DNA from: Verrucomicrobiota bacterium | GTDB lineage: Bacteria; Verrucomicrobiota; Verrucomicrobiia; Limisphaerales; CANJXF01 | Assembly (NCBI GenBank): GCA_038214755.1 | Contig: JBBQRQ010000031.1 | Span: forward strand, 1 to 48,622 | Length of the DNA: 48,622 nt | Direction of reading: 5' to 3' | In this document: positions 113-16,673 of the stretch, one piece after another | Position numbering within the stretch: position 1 is the stretch's first letter | Layout of the letters: each line of letters opens with the position of its first letter | Program-made: the position numbers and the translations under genes | Notes under the pieces: generated by a model | What the model was told of the DNA's origin: nothing | The model's database searches: none | The model's input: only the letters and a program-made list of their open reading frames with translations

Positions 113-281
113 AAGTGTGAGTTAAACTGACGGTCAGAACAAGAGCGCCAGAGGACTGGCGCACTCCAGGACGCTTCGCGCTATTCATGCGCCATCGAAA
201 TTCGCGCGAGCGTCTTGGAGTGCGGCGGCCCTCCGCCGCTTTTAAAAAGACCGGTAGCGACCGCCACTTGGAATCGTACCC
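113..281. mobile_element. MITE/REP-like element, family A, copy 1
   Basis: Nearly colinear with 19339-19504; internal palindrome gcactccaggacgct...agcgtcttggagtgc; degenerate terminal inverted repeats gtgtga.../...aatcgtaccc. Confidence 0.75.
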
Positions 282-334: not shown

Positions 335-3300
335 ATGACGTTTCGGACGCTGATATTTCGCGGGCTGCGCTTTCACGCGCGTTCACACGTCGGCACGCTC
401 CTCGGTGCCGCCGTCGGCAGCGCAATTTTGATCGGCGCATTGGCGGTCGGCGATTCGGTCCGCGAAAGTTTGCGCGAGATCGCGTTGGCCCGTTTGGGAA
501 AATCTCAATTTGCTCTCGCGTCCAACGACCGATTTTTCCGCGCCGACCTTGCGCGCGATCTTGCTTCAACCACATCGCATGTTTCCGCTGCGCTGCAAAT
601 TTCTGGAACTGCCAGCAGCGACAACGGCGAGGCGCGAGCGAACAACATTCAGGTTCTGGGCGTGGACGGAAATTTTTGGAAACTCGCTTCCAAAATTCCG
701 GACCAAACTTTTCGCGGAGAGAACGCGATTGCGCTCAACGCATCGCTGGCGGAACAACTCAATGCAAAAGTCGGCGACACCATTTTGCTGCGCGTCCAAA
801 AGCCTTCGCTCCTTTCCCGCGATGCGCCGATTTCTCCGCAGCAGGATTCCTCCACCGCGTTTCGGATGACGGTGGGAAAAGTTTTGTCCGCCGATGAATT
901 GGGTGATTTTAGTTTGCGCGCGAATCAGATTCCGCCGTTCAACGCATTTGTGCCGCTTGAATTTTTGCAGAACAAACTCGGCCTCGAAGGAAAAGCGAAT
1001 TTGCTTTTGGTCGGGAGCGCCCACGGAACGCCGATCTCCCGATCGGCTCGTGAGACTTTCAGGCGTTCAGATGCCGATCTGGAGATCGGCGTTCCAAAAC
1101 TTCTTCGTGAAAAGTTTCAGCTTACCGACGCCGAATTGGAACTGCGCCCCGTAACGAATCAAAATATTTTAGAGGTGCGAACGGCGCGGGTTTTTCTTGA
1201 TCCGCCCGTCGTGCAAGCCGCCGTAGCCGCGTCTCGTGAGAGCGCGGATGACATTTCATTGGCAGGCAAACCGCACCCGCGCTCTGACGAGACACGGCTA
1301 CCCGGTCTCGTCTCGACTTATTTCGTAAACGAAATTCGGGTTGGAACAAACGCCACGCCCTATTCGATGGTCACCGCGATTGGCACGCCGCACGTTCCGC
1401 CGGAAACGCGCGTCGACGAAATTCTCATCAATGATTGGCTCGCGGAAGATCTGCAAGCGAAACCCGGCGACGAATTGCATCTCCGCTATTTCGTGATGGG
1501 CACGAACCAACGCCTCGAAGAAAAAACAAACTCATTTCGGATTCGCGACGTGGTTCCTCTCGCTGGAATTTACGATGACCGCGATTTGATGCCGGAATTT
1601 CCGGGCGTGGCCAAAGCCGAAAAGACCGACGAATGGGACGCTGGTTTCGCCATCGACATGAAAAAAATCCGCGCGAAGGACGAGCAATATTGGAAGGAAC
1701 ATCGCGGCACGCCGAAAGCGTTTGTCACGCTGGCCGCAGGAGAAAAGATGTGGAGCAATCGTTTTGGAACATTTACGGCGATTCGATTTCCAAACTCTGA
1801 TGCGACAACAGTTCAGGAAAGGTTGCGGCGCCATCTCGATCCTGCGTCGCTCGGTTTAGTTTTCCAACCCGTGCGCGAACAAGCGTTGCACGCCAGTTCG
1901 CAATCGCAGGATTTTGGACAACTTTTTCTGGGCTTCAGTTTCTTTCTGATTTTCGCCGCGCTGATTTTGGTCGCGCTCCTTTTTCAATTCAGCCTGGAAC
2001 AACGCGCCACCGAAATCGGAACACTTCTCGCGCTTGGATTTCGCGCAAAACAAATTCGCCATCTGTTGCTGGCGGAAGGAGCGTCGCTCGCGTTGATCGG
2101 AAGCGTCCTGGGAATGGCAGGTGGAATTTTTTACGCCAAGGCAATGTTGCTCGGACTCAAAACACTTTGGCGCGAGGCGGTGGGAACTTCCGCGCTGCAA
2201 TTTCACGTCACGCCGATGACGCTCATGATTGGGTGCGTCGCGAGTTTGCTCGTGAGCGTTCTGACAATTTGGTTGTCGCTTCGCAGTCAAGCCAAACGCG
2301 CCGCGCAGGACCTGCTTTCTCAAGGCGCGGAGTTGGAAATCGACAATACCCAATCGACGATAGTCAATTCACGAAACTGGTCGAAATGGATTTCCATTTT
2401 CAGTTTGCTGGGTGCGCTGGGTTTGATTAGCGGGGGAATTTTGCAAAAGGAAAATGCCTCGCCGGGAATTTTCTTTGGCGCAGGCGCGCTGCTGCTAATT
2501 TCCGGTTTGGCCTTTGCTGCAAATATTTTGAAAGGAATCGCGAAGGAAAAACGCGCTACCAAAACCCTGTCGGCAGATCTGACCTTGACCCGCCTGGGCG
2601 TTCGCAGTTGCGCGCGACGACGCAAACGTAGTCTCGCGACCATCGGTTTGCTCTCGTGCGGAAGTTTTCTCGTCGTCGCCGTCGCCGCTAACAAACTCGA
2701 TTCAAATCAAAACAGCCGCCAGCGTTCCTCGGGCACCGGCGGATTCGCGCTGATTGGCGAAACGACTTTGCCCGTGGTTCAGGATTTAAACACGAAAGCT
2801 GGCCAAAACTTTTTCGGTTTGGACGAAAAGGATTTGGCCGGTGTGCAAGTCGTTCCATTTCGTGTCCGCGAAGGCGACGATGCGAGTTGCTTAAATTTGA
2901 ATCGCGCACAAACGCCACGCTTGCTCGGTGTCAAACCGGAAATGCTTTCGTCGAGAAAGGCGTTTACGTTTTCAAAAACTTTGCAGGAGACAAAAAATCC
3001 GTGGTTGCTTTTAAAATCAGCGGCGGTCACAGACGCGCCGCTACAACAAACCGATGACGCCATTCCGGCGATTGGCGACGCGAATTCGATTCAATGGGCG
3101 CTTCACAAAAAAGTTGGCGACGTGATTTCTTTCACCGATGAACGCGGAAATAAATTCAACGTTCGCATTGTTGCGTCGGTGGCGAATTCTATTTTGCAAG
3201 GAAGTCTGATCATTGATGAAGCGGAGTTTGTGAAACGGTTTCCGTCGACCAGCGGCTATCGAATGTTTTTGATCGATGCGCCGTCAGAGAATGGTGCTGC

Positions 3301-3850
3301 CGAGATTCTCTCGGCAGAAACATCGCGAAGACATTCGATGACGAATCAACACAAGAACGCTGCTTCTTCCGAGAAAATCTCGGCAGCACTTTCGCGCGCG
3401 CTGCGGGATGTCGGTGTGGAATTAACTCTGACGGAAAAGCGATTGGCCGCTTTTAACGCCGTCCAAAATACTTATTTGAACACGTTTCAAATTCTCGGCG
3501 GACTCGGCTTGTTGCTCGGCAGCGCGGGCATGGGGATTGTGGTGTTGCGAAACGTGCTGGAACGTCGTGGCGAATTGGCCGTGCTGCTCGCGATTGGTTT
3601 TCGCCGACCCAATTTGCGTTGGCTGGTGTTGAGCGAACACGCGGCGTTGTTGTGGTTGGGACTCGGGCTGGGCGTTGCGGCGGCACTCGTCGCAGTTTTA
3701 CCCGCGCTGCTTTCGCCACGAGGAGAATTGCCCTATCTTTCGCTGACAGTGACACTTGGCGCAGTGCTCATCAGCGGAATGATTTGGGCGTGGGCGGCGA
3801 CCTCGCTGGCGTTGCGCGGGGAATTGATGGAGGCGTTGAGGAATAATTGA
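335..3850 (+). CDS. ABC transporter permease, FtsX/MacB-like with two permease domains; carries several in-frame palindromic insertions
   Basis: N-terminal TM segment, two motifs of the type EQRATEIGTLLALGF / ERRGELAVLLAIGF, large periplasmic domains. ATG 335 preferred because the upstream extension is translated repeat. Confidence 0.85.
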   Translation: MTFRTLIFRGLRFHARSHVGTLLGAAVGSAILIGALAVGDSVRESLREIALARLGKSQFALASNDRFFRADLARDLASTTSHVSAALQISGTASSDNGEARANNIQVLGVDGNFWKLASKIPDQTFRGENAIALNASLAEQLNAKVGDTILLRVQKPSLLSRDAPISPQQDSSTAFRMTVGKVLSADELGDFSLRANQIPPFNAFVPLEFLQNKLGLEGKANLLLVGSAHGTPISRSARETFRRSDADLEIGVPKLLREKFQLTDAELELRPVTNQNILEVRTARVFLDPPVVQAAVAASRESADDISLAGKPHPRSDETRLPGLVSTYFVNEIRVGTNATPYSMVTAIGTPHVPPETRVDEILINDWLAEDLQAKPGDELHLRYFVMGTNQRLEEKTNSFRIRDVVPLAGIYDDRDLMPEFPGVAKAEKTDEWDAGFAIDMKKIRAKDEQYWKEHRGTPKAFVTLAAGEKMWSNRFGTFTAIRFPNSDATTVQERLRRHLDPASLGLVFQPVREQALHASSQSQDFGQLFLGFSFFLIFAALILVALLFQFSLEQRATEIGTLLALGFRAKQIRHLLLAEGASLALIGSVLGMAGGIFYAKAMLLGLKTLWREAVGTSALQFHVTPMTLMIGCVASLLVSVLTIWLSLRSQAKRAAQDLLSQGAELEIDNTQSTIVNSRNWSKWISIFSLLGALGLISGGILQKENASPGIFFGAGALLLISGLAFAANILKGIAKEKRATKTLSADLTLTRLGVRSCARRRKRSLATIGLLSCGSFLVVAVAANKLDSNQNSRQRSSGTGGFALIGETTLPVVQDLNTKAGQNFFGLDEKDLAGVQVVPFRVREGDDASCLNLNRAQTPRLLGVKPEMLSSRKAFTFSKTLQETKNPWLLLKSAAVTDAPLQQTDDAIPAIGDANSIQWALHKKVGDVISFTDERGNKFNVRIVASVANSILQGSLIIDEAEFVKRFPSTSGYRMFLIDAPSENGAAEILSAETSRRHSMTNQHKNAASSEKISAALSRALRDVGVELTLTEKRLAAFNAVQNTYLNTFQILGGLGLLLGSAGMGIVVLRNVLERRGELAVLLAIGFRRPNLRWLVLSEHAALLWLGLGLGVAAALVAVLPALLSPRGELPYLSLTVTLGAVLISGMIWAWAATSLALRGELMEALRNN
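1025..1095. repeat. Intragenic palindromic element, in frame in the ABC permease
   Basis: ggaacgccgatctcc...ggagatcggcgttcc is a perfect 15-bp inverted repeat with inner arms gatcggc/gccgatc. Confidence 0.8.
1223..1301. repeat. Intragenic GTAG-type REP pair, in frame in the ABC permease
   Basis: gtagccgcgtctcgtgagagcgcgg...ccgcgctctgacgagacacggctac. Confidence 0.85.
3017..3045. repeat. Intragenic half REP, identical to the reverse complement of 16090-16118
   Basis: tcagcggcggtcacagacgcgccgctaca, 29/29 match. Confidence 0.85.
3294..3389. repeat. Intragenic palindromic element (96 nt), in frame in the ABC permease
   Basis: gtgctgccgagatt...aatctcggcagcac is a 14-bp inverted repeat. Confidence 0.8.
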
Positions 3851-3911: not shown

Positions 3912-4570
3912 TAATTTTTTCCGTGGCTTTCTTGGCGGCGGGGTGTTTGCTCCGCGCGGAGGAAACGAAGACCAATTCGGCGGCGGGGAAAATTCTTTAT
4001 GAAAATAATTTTGAAATAGCAGAGTTGGACAAAGTGCCCGCGGACTTTCTGGTTCTCGACGGCGGGTTCGCAGTGAAGTCGGACGGCACGAACAAATTTT
4101 TGGAACTGCCTGGCGCGCCGCTGGACACGTTCGGCGTATTGTTCGGGCCAACGCAGGAGGGCGACGCAACGATGACGGCCAAAATTCGCGGCGAAGCCAA
4201 GGGACGGCGTTTCCCCACTTTCGCCGTGGGATTGAATGGCGTGAGCGGCTATAAGCTACAGGTTTCTCCAGCGAAAAAGGCGGTGGAACTTTTTCGCGGC
4301 GATGAATTGATTGCCAGCAAGCCGTTCGAGGAAAAACTTGGCGCGTGGATGATGATGCGATTGCAGGTTCAGAAATATTCTGCGGCCCAATGGAAAATTG
4401 AAGGGAAAGTTTGGGCGGAAAATTCCGCCGAACCGAAGCAGCCGCAGATTTCGTTTGAGGAAAAAACACCACCAGTCGCGGGACGCGCTTCGATTTGGGG
4501 AAGTCCCTACGCCGGGACGCCGATTCAGTTTGATGATTTGAAGGTTGCTTCGGCGGAAGCGCGAAAATAG
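3890..4570 (+). CDS. Secreted beta-sandwich protein (DUF1080/LamG-like), function unknown
   Basis: Signal peptide, YENNFE start, ends with FDDLKV as in DUF1080-type folds. Confidence 0.6.
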   Translation: MKNIKREIIFSVAFLAAGCLLRAEETKTNSAAGKILYENNFEIAELDKVPADFLVLDGGFAVKSDGTNKFLELPGAPLDTFGVLFGPTQEGDATMTAKIRGEAKGRRFPTFAVGLNGVSGYKLQVSPAKKAVELFRGDELIASKPFEEKLGAWMMMRLQVQKYSAAQWKIEGKVWAENSAEPKQPQISFEEKTPPVAGRASIWGSPYAGTPIQFDDLKVASAEARK

Positions 4571-4654
4571 GAGCGCGGACGTTCTCGTCCGCGAGTTGGC
4601 TTCTCAGCTATTTCTTGTGATCTGGAACTCGCGGACGAGAACGTCCGCGCTCCT
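4569..4654. repeat. REP pair, family B, copy 1
   Basis: aggagcgcggacgttctcgtccgcg...cgcggacgagaacgtccgcgctcct; same arms at 20066-20166; lies between convergent genes. Confidence 0.9.
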
Positions 4655-4656
4655 TT

Positions 4657-7263
4657 TCAATCCAATTGCACCACTCGATAAAAACGTTGCGCGTTTCCAA
4701 TCGTGCTGTCGGAAACGGAGATCGTGGAGGAACTCGCAACGATGTTGTTCCCCAGTGGCGTCCAACTCGCATTTTCCAAATTATTTTTGAATTCGATGCG
4801 ATAGGTTTTTCCGGCGAACGCGGAAATGTTCAACGTCAGCGTTCCATTGGGAGCGTTGGTGATTTGCGAGAAACGCGGAGGCGCGACGACAATGACTTGA
4901 AAACTTTTGGTGCCAATCAAACTGCCATCGCTAACTTGCAGGTAAATCAGCCACGATTGCGCGCGGGTGGGCGTCCACGAAAAAATTCCAGTGGTGGAAT
5001 TGATTGTCGCGTCCGGCGGAGAACAGGTGCCAAACCCGCAGGTCAAACTATAAATCAAACTTTGCGCGGGTTGATCGGCATCGACCGCTCTCGCGGTGAG
5101 CGACAAGGTGCTGTTCGCATTGACGACTTGATTTGAAATTGGAAAGAAAACCGGCGCGGCGTTCGGCATCGCATTCGTGGCAATCAAATCCAATCCACAT
5201 AATTGCGCCAGCCCAATGACCGAACTGAATTGAACATTGACTTGTCCACTTGCATCCGCTGCGACATGAAAACGTTTTGCAATCGCTTTGAACCTCGCTC
5301 CCGTTTCGGCCCAGATGTCGAAGTTCGTCAGCACCGAAGAGCCGTTGATAGAAACATTGAATACCCGCTGTCCCGGCGCTGTGTTGGTAAAACTCAATTC
5401 CATGAAGTGCAGGCGCAATGCGTAAACTTTGTTAGGCGTCAGATTCGTCAGGAGATAGCTGAAATTCCCATTCCGCTCGGTGAGATAGACGGAAACCGGC
5501 GCAGCTGCACTGCCTACGAGGTTCGTGTCAATCGACGCTGTCGTGGTAAACGTCGCCCCACCAGAAAAATTCGTATCGCTCAAAAATGAAGAGGTGGTGG
5601 CCGCGCCTCCGGAGTTGATTCGGATGCCGACCTCCAGATTCGTCGTGGCTAAATTATTATTTTCATCCACTTCAGGAAATCGATTGATGTCATCCACATT
5701 TCCGACGAGGGAATGGACACCCGGCGTCGCCGTCCACGTAAAACCTCCGCCCGGTCCATCGGCGGAAAACAAAGTGGACGCGCCCGCCGCCAGCGAGAGA
5801 TTTTCATCCGCGCCGTGATAACAAAAAAATGCGCCGTTATCCAAAGTGAATCCAATGCCAATGCCTTTTCCCGAACCAGTCGGTGTCGCGGCTGCGCCTT
5901 GATTTTTTACCGTGGCGCGAAAGACCACCCCGTTGCCCGCGTAAATTGGATTCACGCTGGTGGAAAGTGAAGTGATCGTTACATCGGGCAGCGCGGAAAT
6001 CGCGGCGATGACTTGCGTCGAGTTCGAACTTTCGCCAAAAAAATTTACAGCCGAGACCACGTAAAAATAAGTTCCACCGTTCGTCGCGGAATTGTCCGTG
6101 AAAGTTGTCGCGGTCACGCCCGTCGAAATATTCGTCGCGATAATTCCGTAAGGGCCGCCATTCGTCGGCGAACGTTTCACCGTGTAAGTCGTCGGATTCA
6201 AGGGCGCGTTCGTCCACGTCAACGTAACGCTCGCAGTTCCGGTGGTCACCGCGAGTCCGCTCGGCGCGGGCGGAACATTGGTTGGCGCGAGCAAATAATT
6301 TTTCATCCAATCGGCAATCGGTTCCAGGTCGAACGACGACCATCCGCCCGGATCGCCATTTTGAAAAAGCGTGCAGCCGAGCAAATATGAATCCTGCTGC
6401 ATCTGTTGGTCGACCCAATTGAGCCACCGTTTGTAATCGGACTGCGAGCCGCGCGCTTGCCAGCCGGAGTTATTTGGATCGCCGGAAAAATCGACGCCGC
6501 CTTCGGTCAGAATCAACGGCATGTCCGCGAGGTCGGGATACGACGCGGTGAAGAAACTGTAAAACTGCCGGTAACGCAGCGAGTAAAAAATCTCCGCAGC
6601 GACATCGGTCGTGTAGCTAATCGTGTAGGCATGATAACTCCACGCGCCGCCCGCCGCTTTCGCCTGGCGGAGCGCCGGAGCGAACGCGGCCAGATAACTT
6701 TGCATTTGCGAAATGGAGCCGCCGGGATTTCCCACGCCGATGCTGCCGATGCAGGGCTTGTAGCCCGCCGCCACAATTTTCGGCGTAAGATTCGTCCAGA
6801 ACTGATTGAACCATTGCGACGCGTAGAGCGCGTTATCGAAGGGATAACCGAGCGTCGGCGTGTCGCCTTCGTTCGGCCCTTCGAGAAAATCAATCAGCGC
6901 GCGGTCGGAACTGGAAATCGTGTTGAGCGCGTTGGACATGATGCTCCAATACTGGCTCGCGCTCGTCGTGGCGTTGTTGTTCGTTGTGAAATAAGTCGGC
7001 GTGTAAATGCGCACCACAATTTTTCCGGCAGGCGCGACCGCTTTGTAATTGCGCATCGCCTGCAACATCCCCGTGGGAAATCCGGAATCCAAGCCCAGCA
7101 CCTTCAACGTGCGCGGATGTCCAGCGACGATGTTGGAGGAACCGGCGGTGTAGGCGTTGATGAGATGCACGGAAAGTTTACTGCTGCTCAAGGTTTGGCC
7201 GTGGGCAAAAAAGGGAACCATCAACAACGAAAGCGTTAGAAACAATTTTTGAAACGGGAACAT
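4657..7263 (-). CDS. Secreted modular protein: putative clan GH-A catalytic domain, FN3, CARDB, malectin, Ig/cadherin-like repeat and RFYR-type C-terminal domain
   Basis: Signal peptide; GPNE and ILTEGG motifs; FN3 (PPAPSGL...YFYVVSAVN); CARDB (LPDVTI...ENNN); malectin (INSGG...RVFNVSING...FDI). Confidence 0.75.
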   Translation of the reverse strand: MFPFQKLFLTLSLLMVPFFAHGQTLSSSKLSVHLINAYTAGSSNIVAGHPRTLKVLGLDSGFPTGMLQAMRNYKAVAPAGKIVVRIYTPTYFTTNNNATTSASQYWSIMSNALNTISSSDRALIDFLEGPNEGDTPTLGYPFDNALYASQWFNQFWTNLTPKIVAAGYKPCIGSIGVGNPGGSISQMQSYLAAFAPALRQAKAAGGAWSYHAYTISYTTDVAAEIFYSLRYRQFYSFFTASYPDLADMPLILTEGGVDFSGDPNNSGWQARGSQSDYKRWLNWVDQQMQQDSYLLGCTLFQNGDPGGWSSFDLEPIADWMKNYLLAPTNVPPAPSGLAVTTGTASVTLTWTNAPLNPTTYTVKRSPTNGGPYGIIATNISTGVTATTFTDNSATNGGTYFYVVSAVNFFGESSNSTQVIAAISALPDVTITSLSTSVNPIYAGNGVVFRATVKNQGAAATPTGSGKGIGIGFTLDNGAFFCYHGADENLSLAAGASTLFSADGPGGGFTWTATPGVHSLVGNVDDINRFPEVDENNNLATTNLEVGIRINSGGAATTSSFLSDTNFSGGATFTTTASIDTNLVGSAAAPVSVYLTERNGNFSYLLTNLTPNKVYALRLHFMELSFTNTAPGQRVFNVSINGSSVLTNFDIWAETGARFKAIAKRFHVAADASGQVNVQFSSVIGLAQLCGLDLIATNAMPNAAPVFFPISNQVVNANSTLSLTARAVDADQPAQSLIYSLTCGFGTCSPPDATINSTTGIFSWTPTRAQSWLIYLQVSDGSLIGTKSFQVIVVAPPRFSQITNAPNGTLTLNISAFAGKTYRIEFKNNLENASWTPLGNNIVASSSTISVSDSTIGNAQRFYRVVQLD

Positions 7264-8570: not shown

Positions 8571-8825
8571 TTGAAAACAATTAAACGAAACAAGCGTGTG
8601 CCTCTTCCACCATTAGCAACCGGCCAGGTCTGGGAGTTGGAAGGCTCCAATGTTCACATCGGCCTCATTGGAAAAACACTGGTGCACTACAAACATTTTA
8701 AGGGCGACACCAAGCGCGCGCCCATCTCGCTTTCCGGCAAGACCGTGTTGGAAAAATATCTCAAGGAAAAGAAAGCGGTCTTGCTTCCCGGCCTTCCTTG
8801 CGCCGCGCCGCGAGCCGCCGCCTGA
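8571..8825 (+). CDS. Small basic hypothetical protein (start uncertain)
   Basis: Protein-like sequence LATGQVWEL...GKTLVHYKHF, directly upstream of prfC. Confidence 0.5.
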   Translation: MKTIKRNKRVPLPPLATGQVWELEGSNVHIGLIGKTLVHYKHFKGDTKRAPISLSGKTVLEKYLKEKKAVLLPGLPCAAPRAAA

Positions 8826-8887
8826 CCGATCTGCGCGCCGACGAACCCTTCGTCGGCGCTATTTCTCCTCTTATTTTCCGCGCCCTT

Positions 8888-10558
8888 GTGGACATCGCAA
8901 AAGAAATTCAGCGGCGACGCACCTTCGCAATTATTTCTCACCCGGACGCGGGCAAGACAACGTTGACCGAGAAACTTTTGCTCTACGGCGGCGCGGTGCA
9001 ATTGGCCGGCTCTGTCACCGCGCGAAAACATCAGCGCGCCACCACGAGTGACTGGATGGAGCTGGAAAAAAAACGCGGCATTTCCATCAGCTCGACCGTT
9101 CTGCAATTTGATTACGACGGTTATCGCCTCAACCTCCTCGACACGCCCGGTCACAAAGATTTTTCCGAAGATACCTATCGCGTGCTCACCGCCGTCGATT
9201 CCGTCGTGATGGTGATTGACTCCGGGAAAGGCATTGAAGCGCAAACGCTGAAACTTTTTGAAGTTTGCCGGCAACGCGGAGTGCCTATTTTCACGTTCAT
9301 GAACAAGTGCGACCGCCCGATGAAAGACCCGCTGTCGCTGCTGGACGAATTGGAACGCGTGCTGGGCATCGGCGCGTTTCCGGTCAACTGGCCGATTGGG
9401 ACCGGGTTTGAATTTCAAGGCGTTTACGATCGACGCACCAAACAGGTTTATCTTTTTGAGCGAGTGGCGGGGGGACAATATCGCGCGCCGGTTTCGGTCG
9501 GCGGCTTGAACGATCCCGTGATTCGCGAACGGCTCGACGACGAAACATTTCGCAAAGTTTCCGAAGAATTGGAAATGCTCGAAGGCGCGGGAGAAACTTT
9601 TGACGAAGCGGAAGTGCTTGCGGGAAAAACCACGCCGGTTTTTTTCGGCAGCGGCGTGAATAATTTTGGCGTGCAACTTTTGCTCGACGGCTTTTTGAAA
9701 CACGCCTCGCCGCCGCGCGGCCACAACATTCTCGTAGCCGACAACACTTCGGTAGCCGACGACGTGGGGAGGCGGAGTGATTTATCTGCCGCTCCTGAAA
9801 TTCCGCCTCCTCACCTCGGCGGCTACATCCCTCCCGAACATCCGGCGTTTTCTGGATTCATTTTTAAGATTCAGGCGAACATGGACCCGCGCCATCGTGA
9901 TCGCATTGCTTTCGTCCGCGTTTGCTCCGGCAAATTCGAGCGCGACATGACGGTGAGCCATTCGCGTTCTGCGAAAAAAGTGCGTCTCTCCAGTTCACAC
10001 AAACTTTTTGGCAACGAACGCGAAACGGTGGACGAAGCTTTTCCCGGCGACATCATCGGTCTCGTCGGCCACGACGGATTCGGGATTGGCGACACGCTCA
10101 CCACCGACCCGACAATCAACTACAAAGAAATTCCGCGCTTCACGCCGGAGGCTTTCGCGTATCTGCATAATCCGAATACGGCGAAGTATAAACAATTTCG
10201 CCAGGGGCTGGATCAACTTTTGCAGGAAGGCGTCATTCAGATTCTTAACTTGCGAAACAGTTCCGTCAAAGTTCCGCTGCTCGCCGCCGTCGGTCCGCTC
10301 CAGTTTGAGGTCGTGCAATTTCGGCTGGAAAGCGAATATGGCGCCGCGTCGCGACTGGAGTCTGCGCCGTGGACGGTCGTGCGCTGGCTTCCGCCCGATT
10401 TGAAAGAAGAAGAACTTGATTCACTGTCTCTGCCGACCAGTGCTCGTCTGGCTTATGACATGGGTCAAAATCCCGTGGTGCTTTTCGCGAACGATTGGTC
10501 GGCCAATTATTTTTCGCAAACCAACGCCAAGTTTCCGCTGTCCGCTTTGCCTGTGTAG
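8888..10558 (+). CDS. prfC: Peptide chain release factor 3, with an in-frame REP insertion
   Basis: RRTFAIISHPDAGKTTLTEKLLL, DTPGHKDFSEDTYR, NKCD, FKIQANMDPRHRDR, GPLQFEV. Confidence 0.97.
   Translation: MDIAKEIQRRRTFAIISHPDAGKTTLTEKLLLYGGAVQLAGSVTARKHQRATTSDWMELEKKRGISISSTVLQFDYDGYRLNLLDTPGHKDFSEDTYRVLTAVDSVVMVIDSGKGIEAQTLKLFEVCRQRGVPIFTFMNKCDRPMKDPLSLLDELERVLGIGAFPVNWPIGTGFEFQGVYDRRTKQVYLFERVAGGQYRAPVSVGGLNDPVIRERLDDETFRKVSEELEMLEGAGETFDEAEVLAGKTTPVFFGSGVNNFGVQLLLDGFLKHASPPRGHNILVADNTSVADDVGRRSDLSAAPEIPPPHLGGYIPPEHPAFSGFIFKIQANMDPRHRDRIAFVRVCSGKFERDMTVSHSRSAKKVRLSSSHKLFGNERETVDEAFPGDIIGLVGHDGFGIGDTLTTDPTINYKEIPRFTPEAFAYLHNPNTAKYKQFRQGLDQLLQEGVIQILNLRNSSVKVPLLAAVGPLQFEVVQFRLESEYGAASRLESAPWTVVRWLPPDLKEEELDSLSLPTSARLAYDMGQNPVVLFANDWSANYFSQTNAKFPLSALPV
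9734..9826. repeat. Intragenic GTAG REP pair in prfC
   Basis: gtagccgacgacgtggggaggcgga...tccgcctcctcacctcggcggctac; same family as intergenic 43624-43814; an extra gtagccgac start at 9734. Confidence 0.85.
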
Positions 10559-15518: not shown

Positions 15519-16673
15519 TCACGGTTCGCTGATTTGTCCACATAACACCCCGCGATTTGCTCCCGTCGTTCCCGGTAAATTTCCCGGCAGCTTTTTCACC
15601 CGCAAAAAAGCCAGCAGCGCAAAGGCGGCCGGTTCTATCGCCTGCGCTAGCCAACCCAGTTCGTCACTGGTCTGAGTTTTCGCGGAAGGAAATTGATTTC
15701 TAATTGCACTGACCAAACTTGGATTGTCCGCGCCGCCCCCCGTCAAAATTATTTTGTCCGGCGACGATGGCAAATGAAGTTGGTAATTGAGCGCCATCGA
15801 ACGCGCCGTGAATTCGGTGAACGTCGCGGCCACGTCAAATTTCGACAGTCCTTTCATTTGGCCAATCGCCGTTTTGAAAAAAGGTTCGCCAAACAATTCG
15901 CGTCCGGTGCTCTTCGGCGGCTTTTGTTTGAAATAGGAATGACGCAACCAGCGTTTCAACAAATCCTCTGAAGCCTTTCCCCGCTCTGCCCACGCTCCAC
16001 CTTTGTCGAAATGTTTTTTGCCTCCGCTGAAATGCCGCACGGCGAAATCCAGCAACATATTCGCCGGCCCCGTGTCGAACGCCAGAATCTGTAGCGGCGC
16101 GTCTGTGACCGCCGCTGACTTCTCTTTTAAATTCAGGTCGCGATCACAGACCACTCCTCCGCTCCAATCGATCGAAGTCACATTGCTGATGCCGCCGAGA
16201 TTATTGACGCAAACATGTTTGCCTTTTTTTGCAAAAATAAATTGATGAAAAACCGTGGCGAGCGGCGCGCCTTGTCCACCCGCCGCCAAATCCGCCGCGC
16301 GAAAATTATTCACCACCGGCGCGCGAAATTTTTCCACGAGATAAGCCGGTTCGCCGAGTTGGAACGTTGCGGGATTTTTCTCGTTCGGATTATGGAAAAC
16401 GGTCTGGCCGTGCAAACCGATGAGGCCGGGTTTTGATTTTTGCGTCTTGCGAGTGGCGTGCTGGGCGTAGAAACGCCCGAGGTCGTGATGCAACTGGCAG
16501 AACTCCCAACTCGGCAAATCGCCCCGCGCCGCCTCGTGCAATTTGCGCCGCAATTCGTTCGGAAAATCCGCCCACCAAAACTCGCGCAGTTCGACGCGCT
16601 TTTCCGAAACGGAGCAGAGCGCATAATCCACGCCGTCAATGCTCGTGCCGGACATGATGCCGAGGACGTTCAT
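15519..16673 (-). CDS. anmK: Anhydro-N-acetylmuramic acid kinase, with an in-frame REP insertion
   Basis: GIMSGTSIDGVD, HGQTVFH, DLAAGGQGAPL, NLGGISN, FDTGPAN, PPKSTGRELF. Confidence 0.95.
   Translation of the reverse strand: MNVLGIMSGTSIDGVDYALCSVSEKRVELREFWWADFPNELRRKLHEAARGDLPSWEFCQLHHDLGRFYAQHATRKTQKSKPGLIGLHGQTVFHNPNEKNPATFQLGEPAYLVEKFRAPVVNNFRAADLAAGGQGAPLATVFHQFIFAKKGKHVCVNNLGGISNVTSIDWSGGVVCDRDLNLKEKSAAVTDAPLQILAFDTGPANMLLDFAVRHFSGGKKHFDKGGAWAERGKASEDLLKRWLRHSYFKQKPPKSTGRELFGEPFFKTAIGQMKGLSKFDVAATFTEFTARSMALNYQLHLPSSPDKIILTGGGADNPSLVSAIRNQFPSAKTQTSDELGWLAQAIEPAAFALLAFLRVKKLPGNLPGTTGANRGVLCGQISEP
16090..16166. repeat. Intragenic GTAG REP pair in anmK
   Basis: tgtagcggcgcgtctgtgaccgc...gcgatcacagacc...ccgctcca. 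Confidence 0.85.

Follow-up and report, generated by a model that had tools for sequence, protein, structure and literature searches.

The permease gene and its four inserts

The window analysed here is a 48,622-nucleotide stretch of contig JBBQRQ010000031.1 from a Verrucomicrobiota bacterium (assembly GCA_038214755.1), and our subject is a gene near its start that encodes a type VII ATP-binding cassette (ABC) transporter permease and carries four palindromic repeats, E1 to E4, within its reading frame (Table 1). The genome under study is referred to as G000 (175 contigs); other G numbers denote comparison genomes, of which G001 has 4.4 Mb. As an earlier note on this DNA had proposed, the open reading frame (ORF) of about 1170 residues is intact, with zero internal stops over 1171 codons. 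The product matches the Pfam families FtsX and MacB_PCD above cut-off, and the topology inferred from its AlphaFold 2 (AF2) model (predicted local distance difference test score, pLDDT, 85.8; built with 91 sequences) comprises about ten transmembrane helices and two periplasmic domains. The best PDB match to the model is YbbAP (9ge6, E 6e-15, Foldseek), and the Pfam and Foldseek results together place the protein among the type VII (MacB/FtsX-fold) permeases, with FtsX modules and large periplasmic domains. A permease match is present in 41 out of 41 genomes searched, orthologs across the order are intact, and the closest named homologs are from Verrucomicrobiota, including Pedosphaera parvula. 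Outside the inserts, the ratio of nonsynonymous to synonymous substitution rates (dN/dS) is 0.12–0.14 in all five congener comparisons; as judged by its sequence, the permease is under purifying selection and the gene still looks functional.

Table 1. Coordinates of the permease gene, its inserts, neighbouring repeats and nested transposase cassettes (window positions unless a contig is named).
Feature	Position	Strand	Remarks
Type VII (FtsX/MacB-fold, YbbP-like) ABC permease	335..3850	+	1171 aa, ATG at 335
E1, head-to-head REP dimer, GGAA tag	1025..1095	+	residues 231-254, first periplasmic domain
E2, GTAG-tagged REP dimer	1223..1301	+	residues 297-323, first predicted periplasmic domain
E3, single GTAG-tagged REP, minus-strand tag	3017..3045	-	residues 895-904, second periplasmic domain
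E4, GTGC-tagged REP dimer	3294..3389	+	about residues 987-1018, second predicted periplasmic domain
Probable remnant, start of an older GGAG-tagged dimer	1013..1020	+	inferred: DNA alignment with G007; peptides of P0122, P0123, P0125, P0126
REP dimer, intergenic, upstream of the permease	130..245		family flanks a free-standing RAYT on contig C117
REP dimer, intergenic, GGAG-tagged	4566..4657		family flanks a free-standing RAYT on C13
REP-RAYT-REP cassette in priA	C88:17590-20586		L110
REP-RAYT-REP cassette in DinG/YoaA-like helicase	C64:9580-12468		L109
REP-RAYT-REP cassette in kinase/pyrophosphorylase (UDPGP-like)	C33:13409-17728		L108

The permease holds three dimers of repetitive extragenic palindromes (REPs), E1, E2 and E4, in which two conserved arms stand head to head around a variable spacer, and one REP monomer, E3; the four belong to four different families. 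The earlier note had reported inverted repeats at all four sites, which the dimers bear out (arms 1025–1047/1073–1095, 1223–1250/1274–1301 and 3294–3325/3358–3389, which are 96%, 89% and 88% complementary, respectively); E3 is a single hairpin. The folding z-scores of E1 to E4 are -7.5, -7.6, -4.3 and -6.9, and 0, 0, 1 and 0 of 200 shuffles, respectively, fold equally well. The peptides quoted in the note, including SAAVTDAPLQ and AAEILSAETS...SEKISAA, are the correct translations, but its framing of the repeats as GTAG REPs applies to E2 and E3 only, as E1 starts with GGAA and E4 with GTGC; degenerate REP tags are on record in PMC3733652.

Counting as copies all genomic sites with at most four mismatches from one arm, we found 232, 22, 133 and 69 copies of the E1, E2, E3 and E4 families, respectively (119, 16, 100 and 32 merged loci by blastn, our second measure), and the claim of at least four in-frame palindromic insertions from different repeat families is therefore sound. 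Intergenic copies number 207, 14, 117 and 23; those deep in genes make up 20/232, 5/22, 4/133 and 36/69, and those in dimers 207/232, 10/22, 64/133 and 44/69. These are GC-rich short hairpins present in many copies and mainly extragenic, as REPs are, with the exception of the E4 family, which is 52% intragenic (43 copies in 26 genes). E3 is identical to 10 other copies in its own genome. The elements are not Rickettsia palindromic elements (RPEs), as their tags are not CGTC and the genome has 17 Y1_Tnp matches. A fifth insert at ~2339–2373 was ruled out, the loop there being as long as in the congeners. We saw no empty allele at E1–E4 in the contigs of one DNA run, which may itself be the source of the assembly and whose contigs drop rare variants, so that this result carries no weight either way.

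In the AF2 model all four inserts fall in predicted periplasmic loops, the first domain holding E1 and E2 and the second holding the other two, in agreement with the surface-loop placement anticipated by the note. Model confidence dips at all four: the pLDDT is ~61–74 over parts of E1–E3 and below 50 at residues 986–999. The left arm of E4 is disordered in the model, and its right arm forms the start of a host helix (1004–1022).

Junctions, loop history and the genome-wide census

A DNA-level alignment of the permease genes of six congeners resolves the insertion of two elements. E2 corresponds to +60 nt relative to five of the six, with G007 sharing the insert, and E4 to +75 nt relative to five of the six, with G007 carrying a different 21-nt extra. 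The elements measure 79 nt (E2) and 96 nt (E4), so that the host has lost 19 and 21 bases, respectively, for a net gain of 20 and 25 aa; E2 and E4 are clean gaps against the congeners and replace host bases rather than simply adding to them. Reading this alignment by eye, we saw no target duplication at either junction, and with no direct repeat and with host bases gone the elements do not qualify as a classical miniature inverted-repeat transposable element. The E2 variant of G007 lies at the same place with both arms changed, the same net length and the same junctions. The residues coded by the right arm of E4 resemble the host residues lost there, and in the model this arm appears to stand in for them.

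E1 and E3 lie in length-variable loops and are therefore not clean gaps against the six congeners, so that the expected coincidence of ortholog gaps with the elements is seen for E2 and E4 alone. For these two, neither of the findings that the note had named as refuting it, homologous residues in orthologs or a lack of other genomic copies, was made. At the E1 loop, four close relatives carry another dimer that is roughly as long as E1, and its first 8 bases were apparently kept in G000 (the remnant in Table 1), and the intergenic dimer downstream of the permease (4566..4657) resembles this older dimer. In relatives, the loops of both E1 and E3 are filled by other repeat-like inserts; the E3 loop is a hotspot, with varied repeat-like peptides in 20 listed homologs (the close relatives plus those at least 12 residues above the median of 75 scored).

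We placed the inserts on a permease tree of 22 rows from which the four loops had been removed. Inserts of the E4 family occur in three non-sister rows (P0121, P0125 and P0132) that have different spacers, lengths of +25, +29 and +28 and empty neighbours; E2 occurs in two non-sister rows, and E3 on both sides of a split with 100/100 and 98/97 support. Host codons were lost on insertion, which rules out exact reversion as the source of the empty neighbours and leaves repeated gain or recombination. E2 and E3 are common to some congeners. Across species, a given loop sees one insert replaced by another. Between G000 and G007 the E2 peptide has a dN/dS of 0.83 (27 codons). E3 shows 0 synonymous changes in 9 codons against both G007 and G005, as compared to a gene-wide proportion of synonymous differences (pS) of 0.51 and 0.60, and E3 is therefore younger than the gene or has been homogenised. 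The proposal that the repeats act as a source of new peptide segments holds in so far as the inserts are tolerated; the E2 ratio and the swapping of inserts between species speak against more than that.

Genome-wide, we relied on gene calls from our own hexamer model (4109 genes) and not on a standard annotator. Of 5844 repeat units, 389 lie deep in genes, though this zone makes up 65% of the genome; once two more families are included, there are 218 sites in 174 predicted genes. An ortholog in 1.19 Mb of G001 was available for 46 deep sites, of which 31 are insertions, 10 have the same length and 5 are not covered. A frame-blind test took the 33 sites whose two flanks fall within a single G001 ORF. 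Net insertion was absent at 8 of them, and by our own count 24 of the 25 net insertions were multiples of three, the exception lying at a gene start; three rows had matched the shadow frame of genes that the G001 comparison found to be open, and the test would miss long-decayed broken genes. Census, orthologs, frame test and AF2 model together bear out the claim that several REP families invade coding sequence in frame and in predicted surface loops. Genes with at least four sites are expected 0.061 times and were found twice, with P = 7.7e-5 for the permease under a length-proportional model. A five-site gene on contig C12 proved to be a protein-repeat artefact, and the permease is the only true four-site gene in the census; the four-insert permease is real and more than chance. 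Stop-codon content was rejected as the reason for why some families are intragenic, the correlation being weak (Spearman 0.24, p 0.04, 73 families).

Several other genes carry repeats of this kind. Within the window, prfC (RF3, 8798–10558, plus strand) contains an in-frame GTAG repeat cluster at 9734–9826 (net +28 aa relative to 4/5 congeners), and the same loop in G005 has a different hairpin insert (+14 aa). The anmK gene (15519–16673, minus strand) holds a second in-frame E3 repeat at 16088–16118 that codes for the same peptide; its loop is 18 aa longer than in 3/5 congeners, and G003 and G005 have another insert there. Elsewhere in G000, uvrA (C9:59823-62717) has three repeat sites; PMC3733652 reports double inserts in Opitutus terrae uvrA. 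The first 100 positions of the window consist of low-complexity C and T runs and are a possible assembly artefact.

Transposases inside housekeeping proteins

The earlier note missed the link of these repeats to REP-associated tyrosine transposases (RAYTs) and the presence of in-frame RAYT cassettes in housekeeping genes. G000 has, besides its 17 Y1_Tnp matches, two further RAYTs detected via NF047646, and 11 of the 17 Y1/RAYT loci have their own repeat families on both sides. Three G000 RAYTs lie in frame in host ORFs with repeats on both sides: in priA, in a DinG/YoaA-like helicase and in a kinase/UDPGP-like protein (Table 1).

The priA RAYT is the only one flanked by the most abundant G000 repeat family (306 copies in G000, 4–63 in four congeners). 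The seven congeners with priA sequence have five cassettes, one solo dimer and one near-empty allele, and the congener cassettes comprise two RAYT types and four repeat families, one cassette being cut short where its contig ends. The solo dimer found in G007 corresponds to the right-hand dimer of the cassette in G008, sharing 41 of 51 spacer positions with it and 23 with the left-hand one. In the core of the priA RAYT, dN/dS is 0.07–0.13, and the dS of the RAYT part is 1.5–2.7 versus 0.93–1.18 for the host. Matching the nested RAYT to repeat abundance gave a mixed result: G003 has 63 copies of the G000 priA-flank family, and its own priA RAYT is flanked by another family with only 10 copies there. 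G009, an unpublished genome, has a priA cassette and an empty dinG site; it enters only one degenerate position of a repeat pattern, and beyond that no conclusion rests on it.

The dinG site is empty in seven congeners, and a cassette is present at the same site in 103 of the best 120 long homologs, with the HUH motif in 103/103 and the catalytic Tyr motif in 101/103. In the DinG model the RAYT is predicted to be folded (pLDDT mostly 70–93) between disordered repeat-coded linkers (predicted template modelling score 0.57, with a weak C-terminal domain). A DinG host tree (22 rows, including 15 of 90 other full-length fusion hosts, hand-chosen) needs two changes and does not separate regain from losses. 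In congeners that lack the cassette (L128-L135) the dinG linker contains heptamer-like tandem sequence; G000 too is rich in tandem arrays of heptamers. Two repeat families, 79 and 93, which are related to the flanks of the DinG-nested RAYT, have 18/22 and 11/16 copies deep in genes.

Beyond these genomes, 1018 and 1238 long proteins carry these domains, and the hosts seen include AlaRS, ThrRS, LeuRS, ValRS, MetH, DnaE, RecG, CarB, XseA, HypF and DNA methylases. The AlaRS and methionine synthase entries P0241-P0253 have doubled scores, and the two entries checked (P0241 and P0251) each show a pair of HUH motifs and so have two nested RAYT domains. An ortholog with REP-RAYT-REP at the position of the repeat was found for priA, alaS and dnaE and not for the permease; in alaS and dnaE, G000 has solo repeats where G005 has a cassette. 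Pfam and NCBIfam scans of the nested cassettes detected no splicing domain. Product names from the Joint Genome Institute, 'helicase/REP element-mobilizing transposase RayT' among them, indicate that such fusions receive automatic annotation, and Quentin 2018 set aside TnpA-Y1 proteins that were long, taking them for 'gene fusions or annotation errors'. We found no description of in-frame RAYT cassettes inside host proteins in the literature searched, which left most subscription journals outside reach.

Near permease genes, one locus in another family is of note: in G011 (C151:31000-37000, L201) a free-standing RAYT and dimers lie directly upstream of the permease ortholog, which itself carries a same-family dimer in frame in a predicted cytoplasmic loop.

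Origin of the inserts and comparison with known systems

We consider it likely that each element was set in place by a RAYT in trans, host bases being lost in the process, and that selection kept the in-frame events in tolerant loops that were hit again. E1–E4 would then be non-autonomous REP elements of a RAYT/TnpA-REP system, from four families of a genome with dozens. The transposase would cut and rejoin single-stranded DNA, setting the element at a short target, and about 20 host bases would be lost at the junction during placement; this step is suggested by the chemistry in PMC8266576, where RAYT cleavage is guided by the tag, and by the association of RAYTs with repeats in G000. Selection would purge insertions that break the frame or hit the folded core, so that the few tolerant loops of a large protein would collect the survivors and be re-hit, one family supplanting another. 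The peptides would be tolerated passengers, with the possible exception of the right arm of E4, which may replace lost host residues.

Several observations weigh against this account. No RAYT is flanked by the E1–E4 families at the 17 loci of the 175-contig G000 assembly or at 20 congener loci (best 6–11 mismatches); the nearest to a cognate is a sibling of E4 (4/24 positions differ, at paired stem positions) beside a contig-truncated priA-nested RAYT in G006. Two E4-family copies 830 bp apart in G006, considered as a cassette, are separate in-frame inserts in a large gene without a RAYT. The RAYT papers demonstrate cleavage and strand transfer in vitro, and the dissemination mechanism is called poorly understood (PMC8266576). 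Part of E1 (238–260) models as a helix, the patchy sharing could also stem from recombination between congeners, and the census has false positives (~8/33 and 10/46 sites without net insertion).

A single entry per element, followed by homologous recombination or gene conversion from the REP pool, would explain the shared length and junctions of E2 in G000 and G007 and the unchanged E3, which lacks synonymous changes against two species and equals 10 copies in its own genome; the high dS of the priA RAYT relative to its host likewise suggests allele exchange in the genus. As the whole explanation we regard this as rather unlikely, since neither the spacer nor the length of the E4-family inserts is constant over the three rows, the same loop is occupied by different families, and recombination spreads an insert while leaving its origin unexplained; it probably contributes to the sharing between species and is compatible with placement in trans. 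A dimer could alternatively be the footprint of a dimer-RAYT-dimer cassette, once in frame at the site, that lost its RAYT through recombination of its direct repeats, or the site at which a cassette enters. The priA solo dimer of G007, closest to the right dimer of G008, is what such a deletion or its reverse predicts; the solo repeats of alaS and dnaE at the G005 cassette positions fit as well, as does the O. terrae Oter_1564 solo dimer at 715–734, next to residue 713, the junction in the G001 ortholog, where G000 has a cassette (judged from positions, unaligned). The route is thus supported at priA but unlikely for periplasmic loops, and we hold it improbable for the permease inserts: RAYTs were found in 0/69 permease loci and 0/120 listed homologs, none of 53 long RAYT-bearing representatives has an FtsX hit at E<=1e-12, a transposase domain at the four predicted periplasmic sites would have no access to DNA, E3 is a monomer, and thrS, both metH sites and the second alaS site have no solo repeat in G000. 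The two longest close homologs, examined as RAYT carriers, are long because of an internal duplication in P0124 and other loop inserts in P0143.

Domestication, by which selection would maintain a function of the peptides or RNA hairpins in the transporter or in its mRNA, could account for the constancy of E3 across species, the mimicry of helix residues by the right arm of E4 and the pairing kept in both E2 variants. We find it very improbable given the E2 ratio of 0.83 over its 27 codons, the swapping or absence of the inserts in most relatives and the conservation of E3 at the DNA level. No other gene in the census has as many true repeat sites as the permease, which is what decay of a gene no longer needed would predict, and yet the 3.5 kb open frame, the four of four inserts in frame, the low dN/dS in 5/5 comparisons and the intact orthologs across the order leave decay hardly credible.

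A broader scenario is tentative, and we would put it somewhat below an even chance. The REP-RAYT system of this order may have moved into protein space: catalytically intact cassettes would live as translated domains of housekeeping proteins with REP dimers as flexible linkers, be exchanged at fixed sites from lineage to lineage and drive gene-biased families such as the E4 class; solo in-frame dimers would be the footprints and landing pads of such a cycle, and the permease a periplasmic dead end that records four families. If true, essential proteins would be home to a mobile element that does without splicing. Should the nested cassettes prove active, the persistence of RAYTs would have a testable explanation, and repeats and whole domains a route into essential proteins.

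Of the known systems, the host protein matches E. coli YbbP, BceB and other type VII permeases (PDB 9ge6, 7tcg) in fold and in its duplicated FtsX modules, but shows 14% identity and falls under the cut-off of every NCBIfam model. The inserts have their closest precedent in the same phylum. Di Nocera et al. 2013 (PMC3733652) report intragenic GTAG REPs, the majority of them from O. terrae with 70 entries; there GTAG-17/18/19 form singles or dimers that code for 7–30 aa in ORFs, two families share one ORF in Oter_0009 and Oter_1797, double insertions are also reported, ABC transporters are among the targets and loops are proposed as tolerated sites. The tagged in-ORF hairpins and the choice of target are as in the permease, and the note's treatment of RPEs as the one intragenic parallel was overstated. 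The permease differs in having four families in one gene (as compared with 30 of the 70 rows; the other 40 may include a gene with more than two inserts), in two tags that are not GTAG and in one family that is more than half intragenic; in addition, orthologs document the replacement of host codons and recurrent replacement at the same loop.

REPIN-RAYT systems and REPtrons (PMC6006769, PMC8266576, bioRxiv 10.1101/2021.07.10.451892) share the head-to-head dimers, conserved arms, variable spacer, 5' tetranucleotide and repeat-flanked, family-specific RAYTs seen here. These sources place REPINs almost exclusively outside genes and treat RAYTs as single genes that are likewise extragenic, whereas G000 has repeats in 174 predicted genes and RAYT cassettes in frame in host genes. 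RPEs are likewise in-frame palindromic repeats in apparently functional proteins; they are CGTC-tagged without a dedicated transposase (PMC3733652) or longer elements (as cited, PMC3733652, PMC3184786), unlike the GTAG-, GGAA- or GTGC-tagged E1–E4 in a genome rich in RAYTs.

The permease is an extreme, well-resolved case of a described phenomenon, and what is new is that one gene holds four families, that the same loops gained inserts more than once and that 52% of the E4 family is intragenic. Inserts in coding sequence keep a record that intergenic copies have lost, because the empty allele can be aligned: the junctions (~20 host bases replaced, no duplication) and the reuse of loops by different families constrain the mechanism directly, and four loops of a type VII permease are marked as tolerant of 10–30 residues. 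The nested cassettes invite a further comparison, by analogy only. Inteins and homing elements lie in frame at fixed sites in genes for replication, repair and translation, and their distribution is patchy. The nested RAYT cassettes resemble them in their in-frame fixed sites, host types and patchiness, but unlike an intein the nested RAYT appears, as modelled, to be kept as a folded domain between disordered REP-coded linkers.

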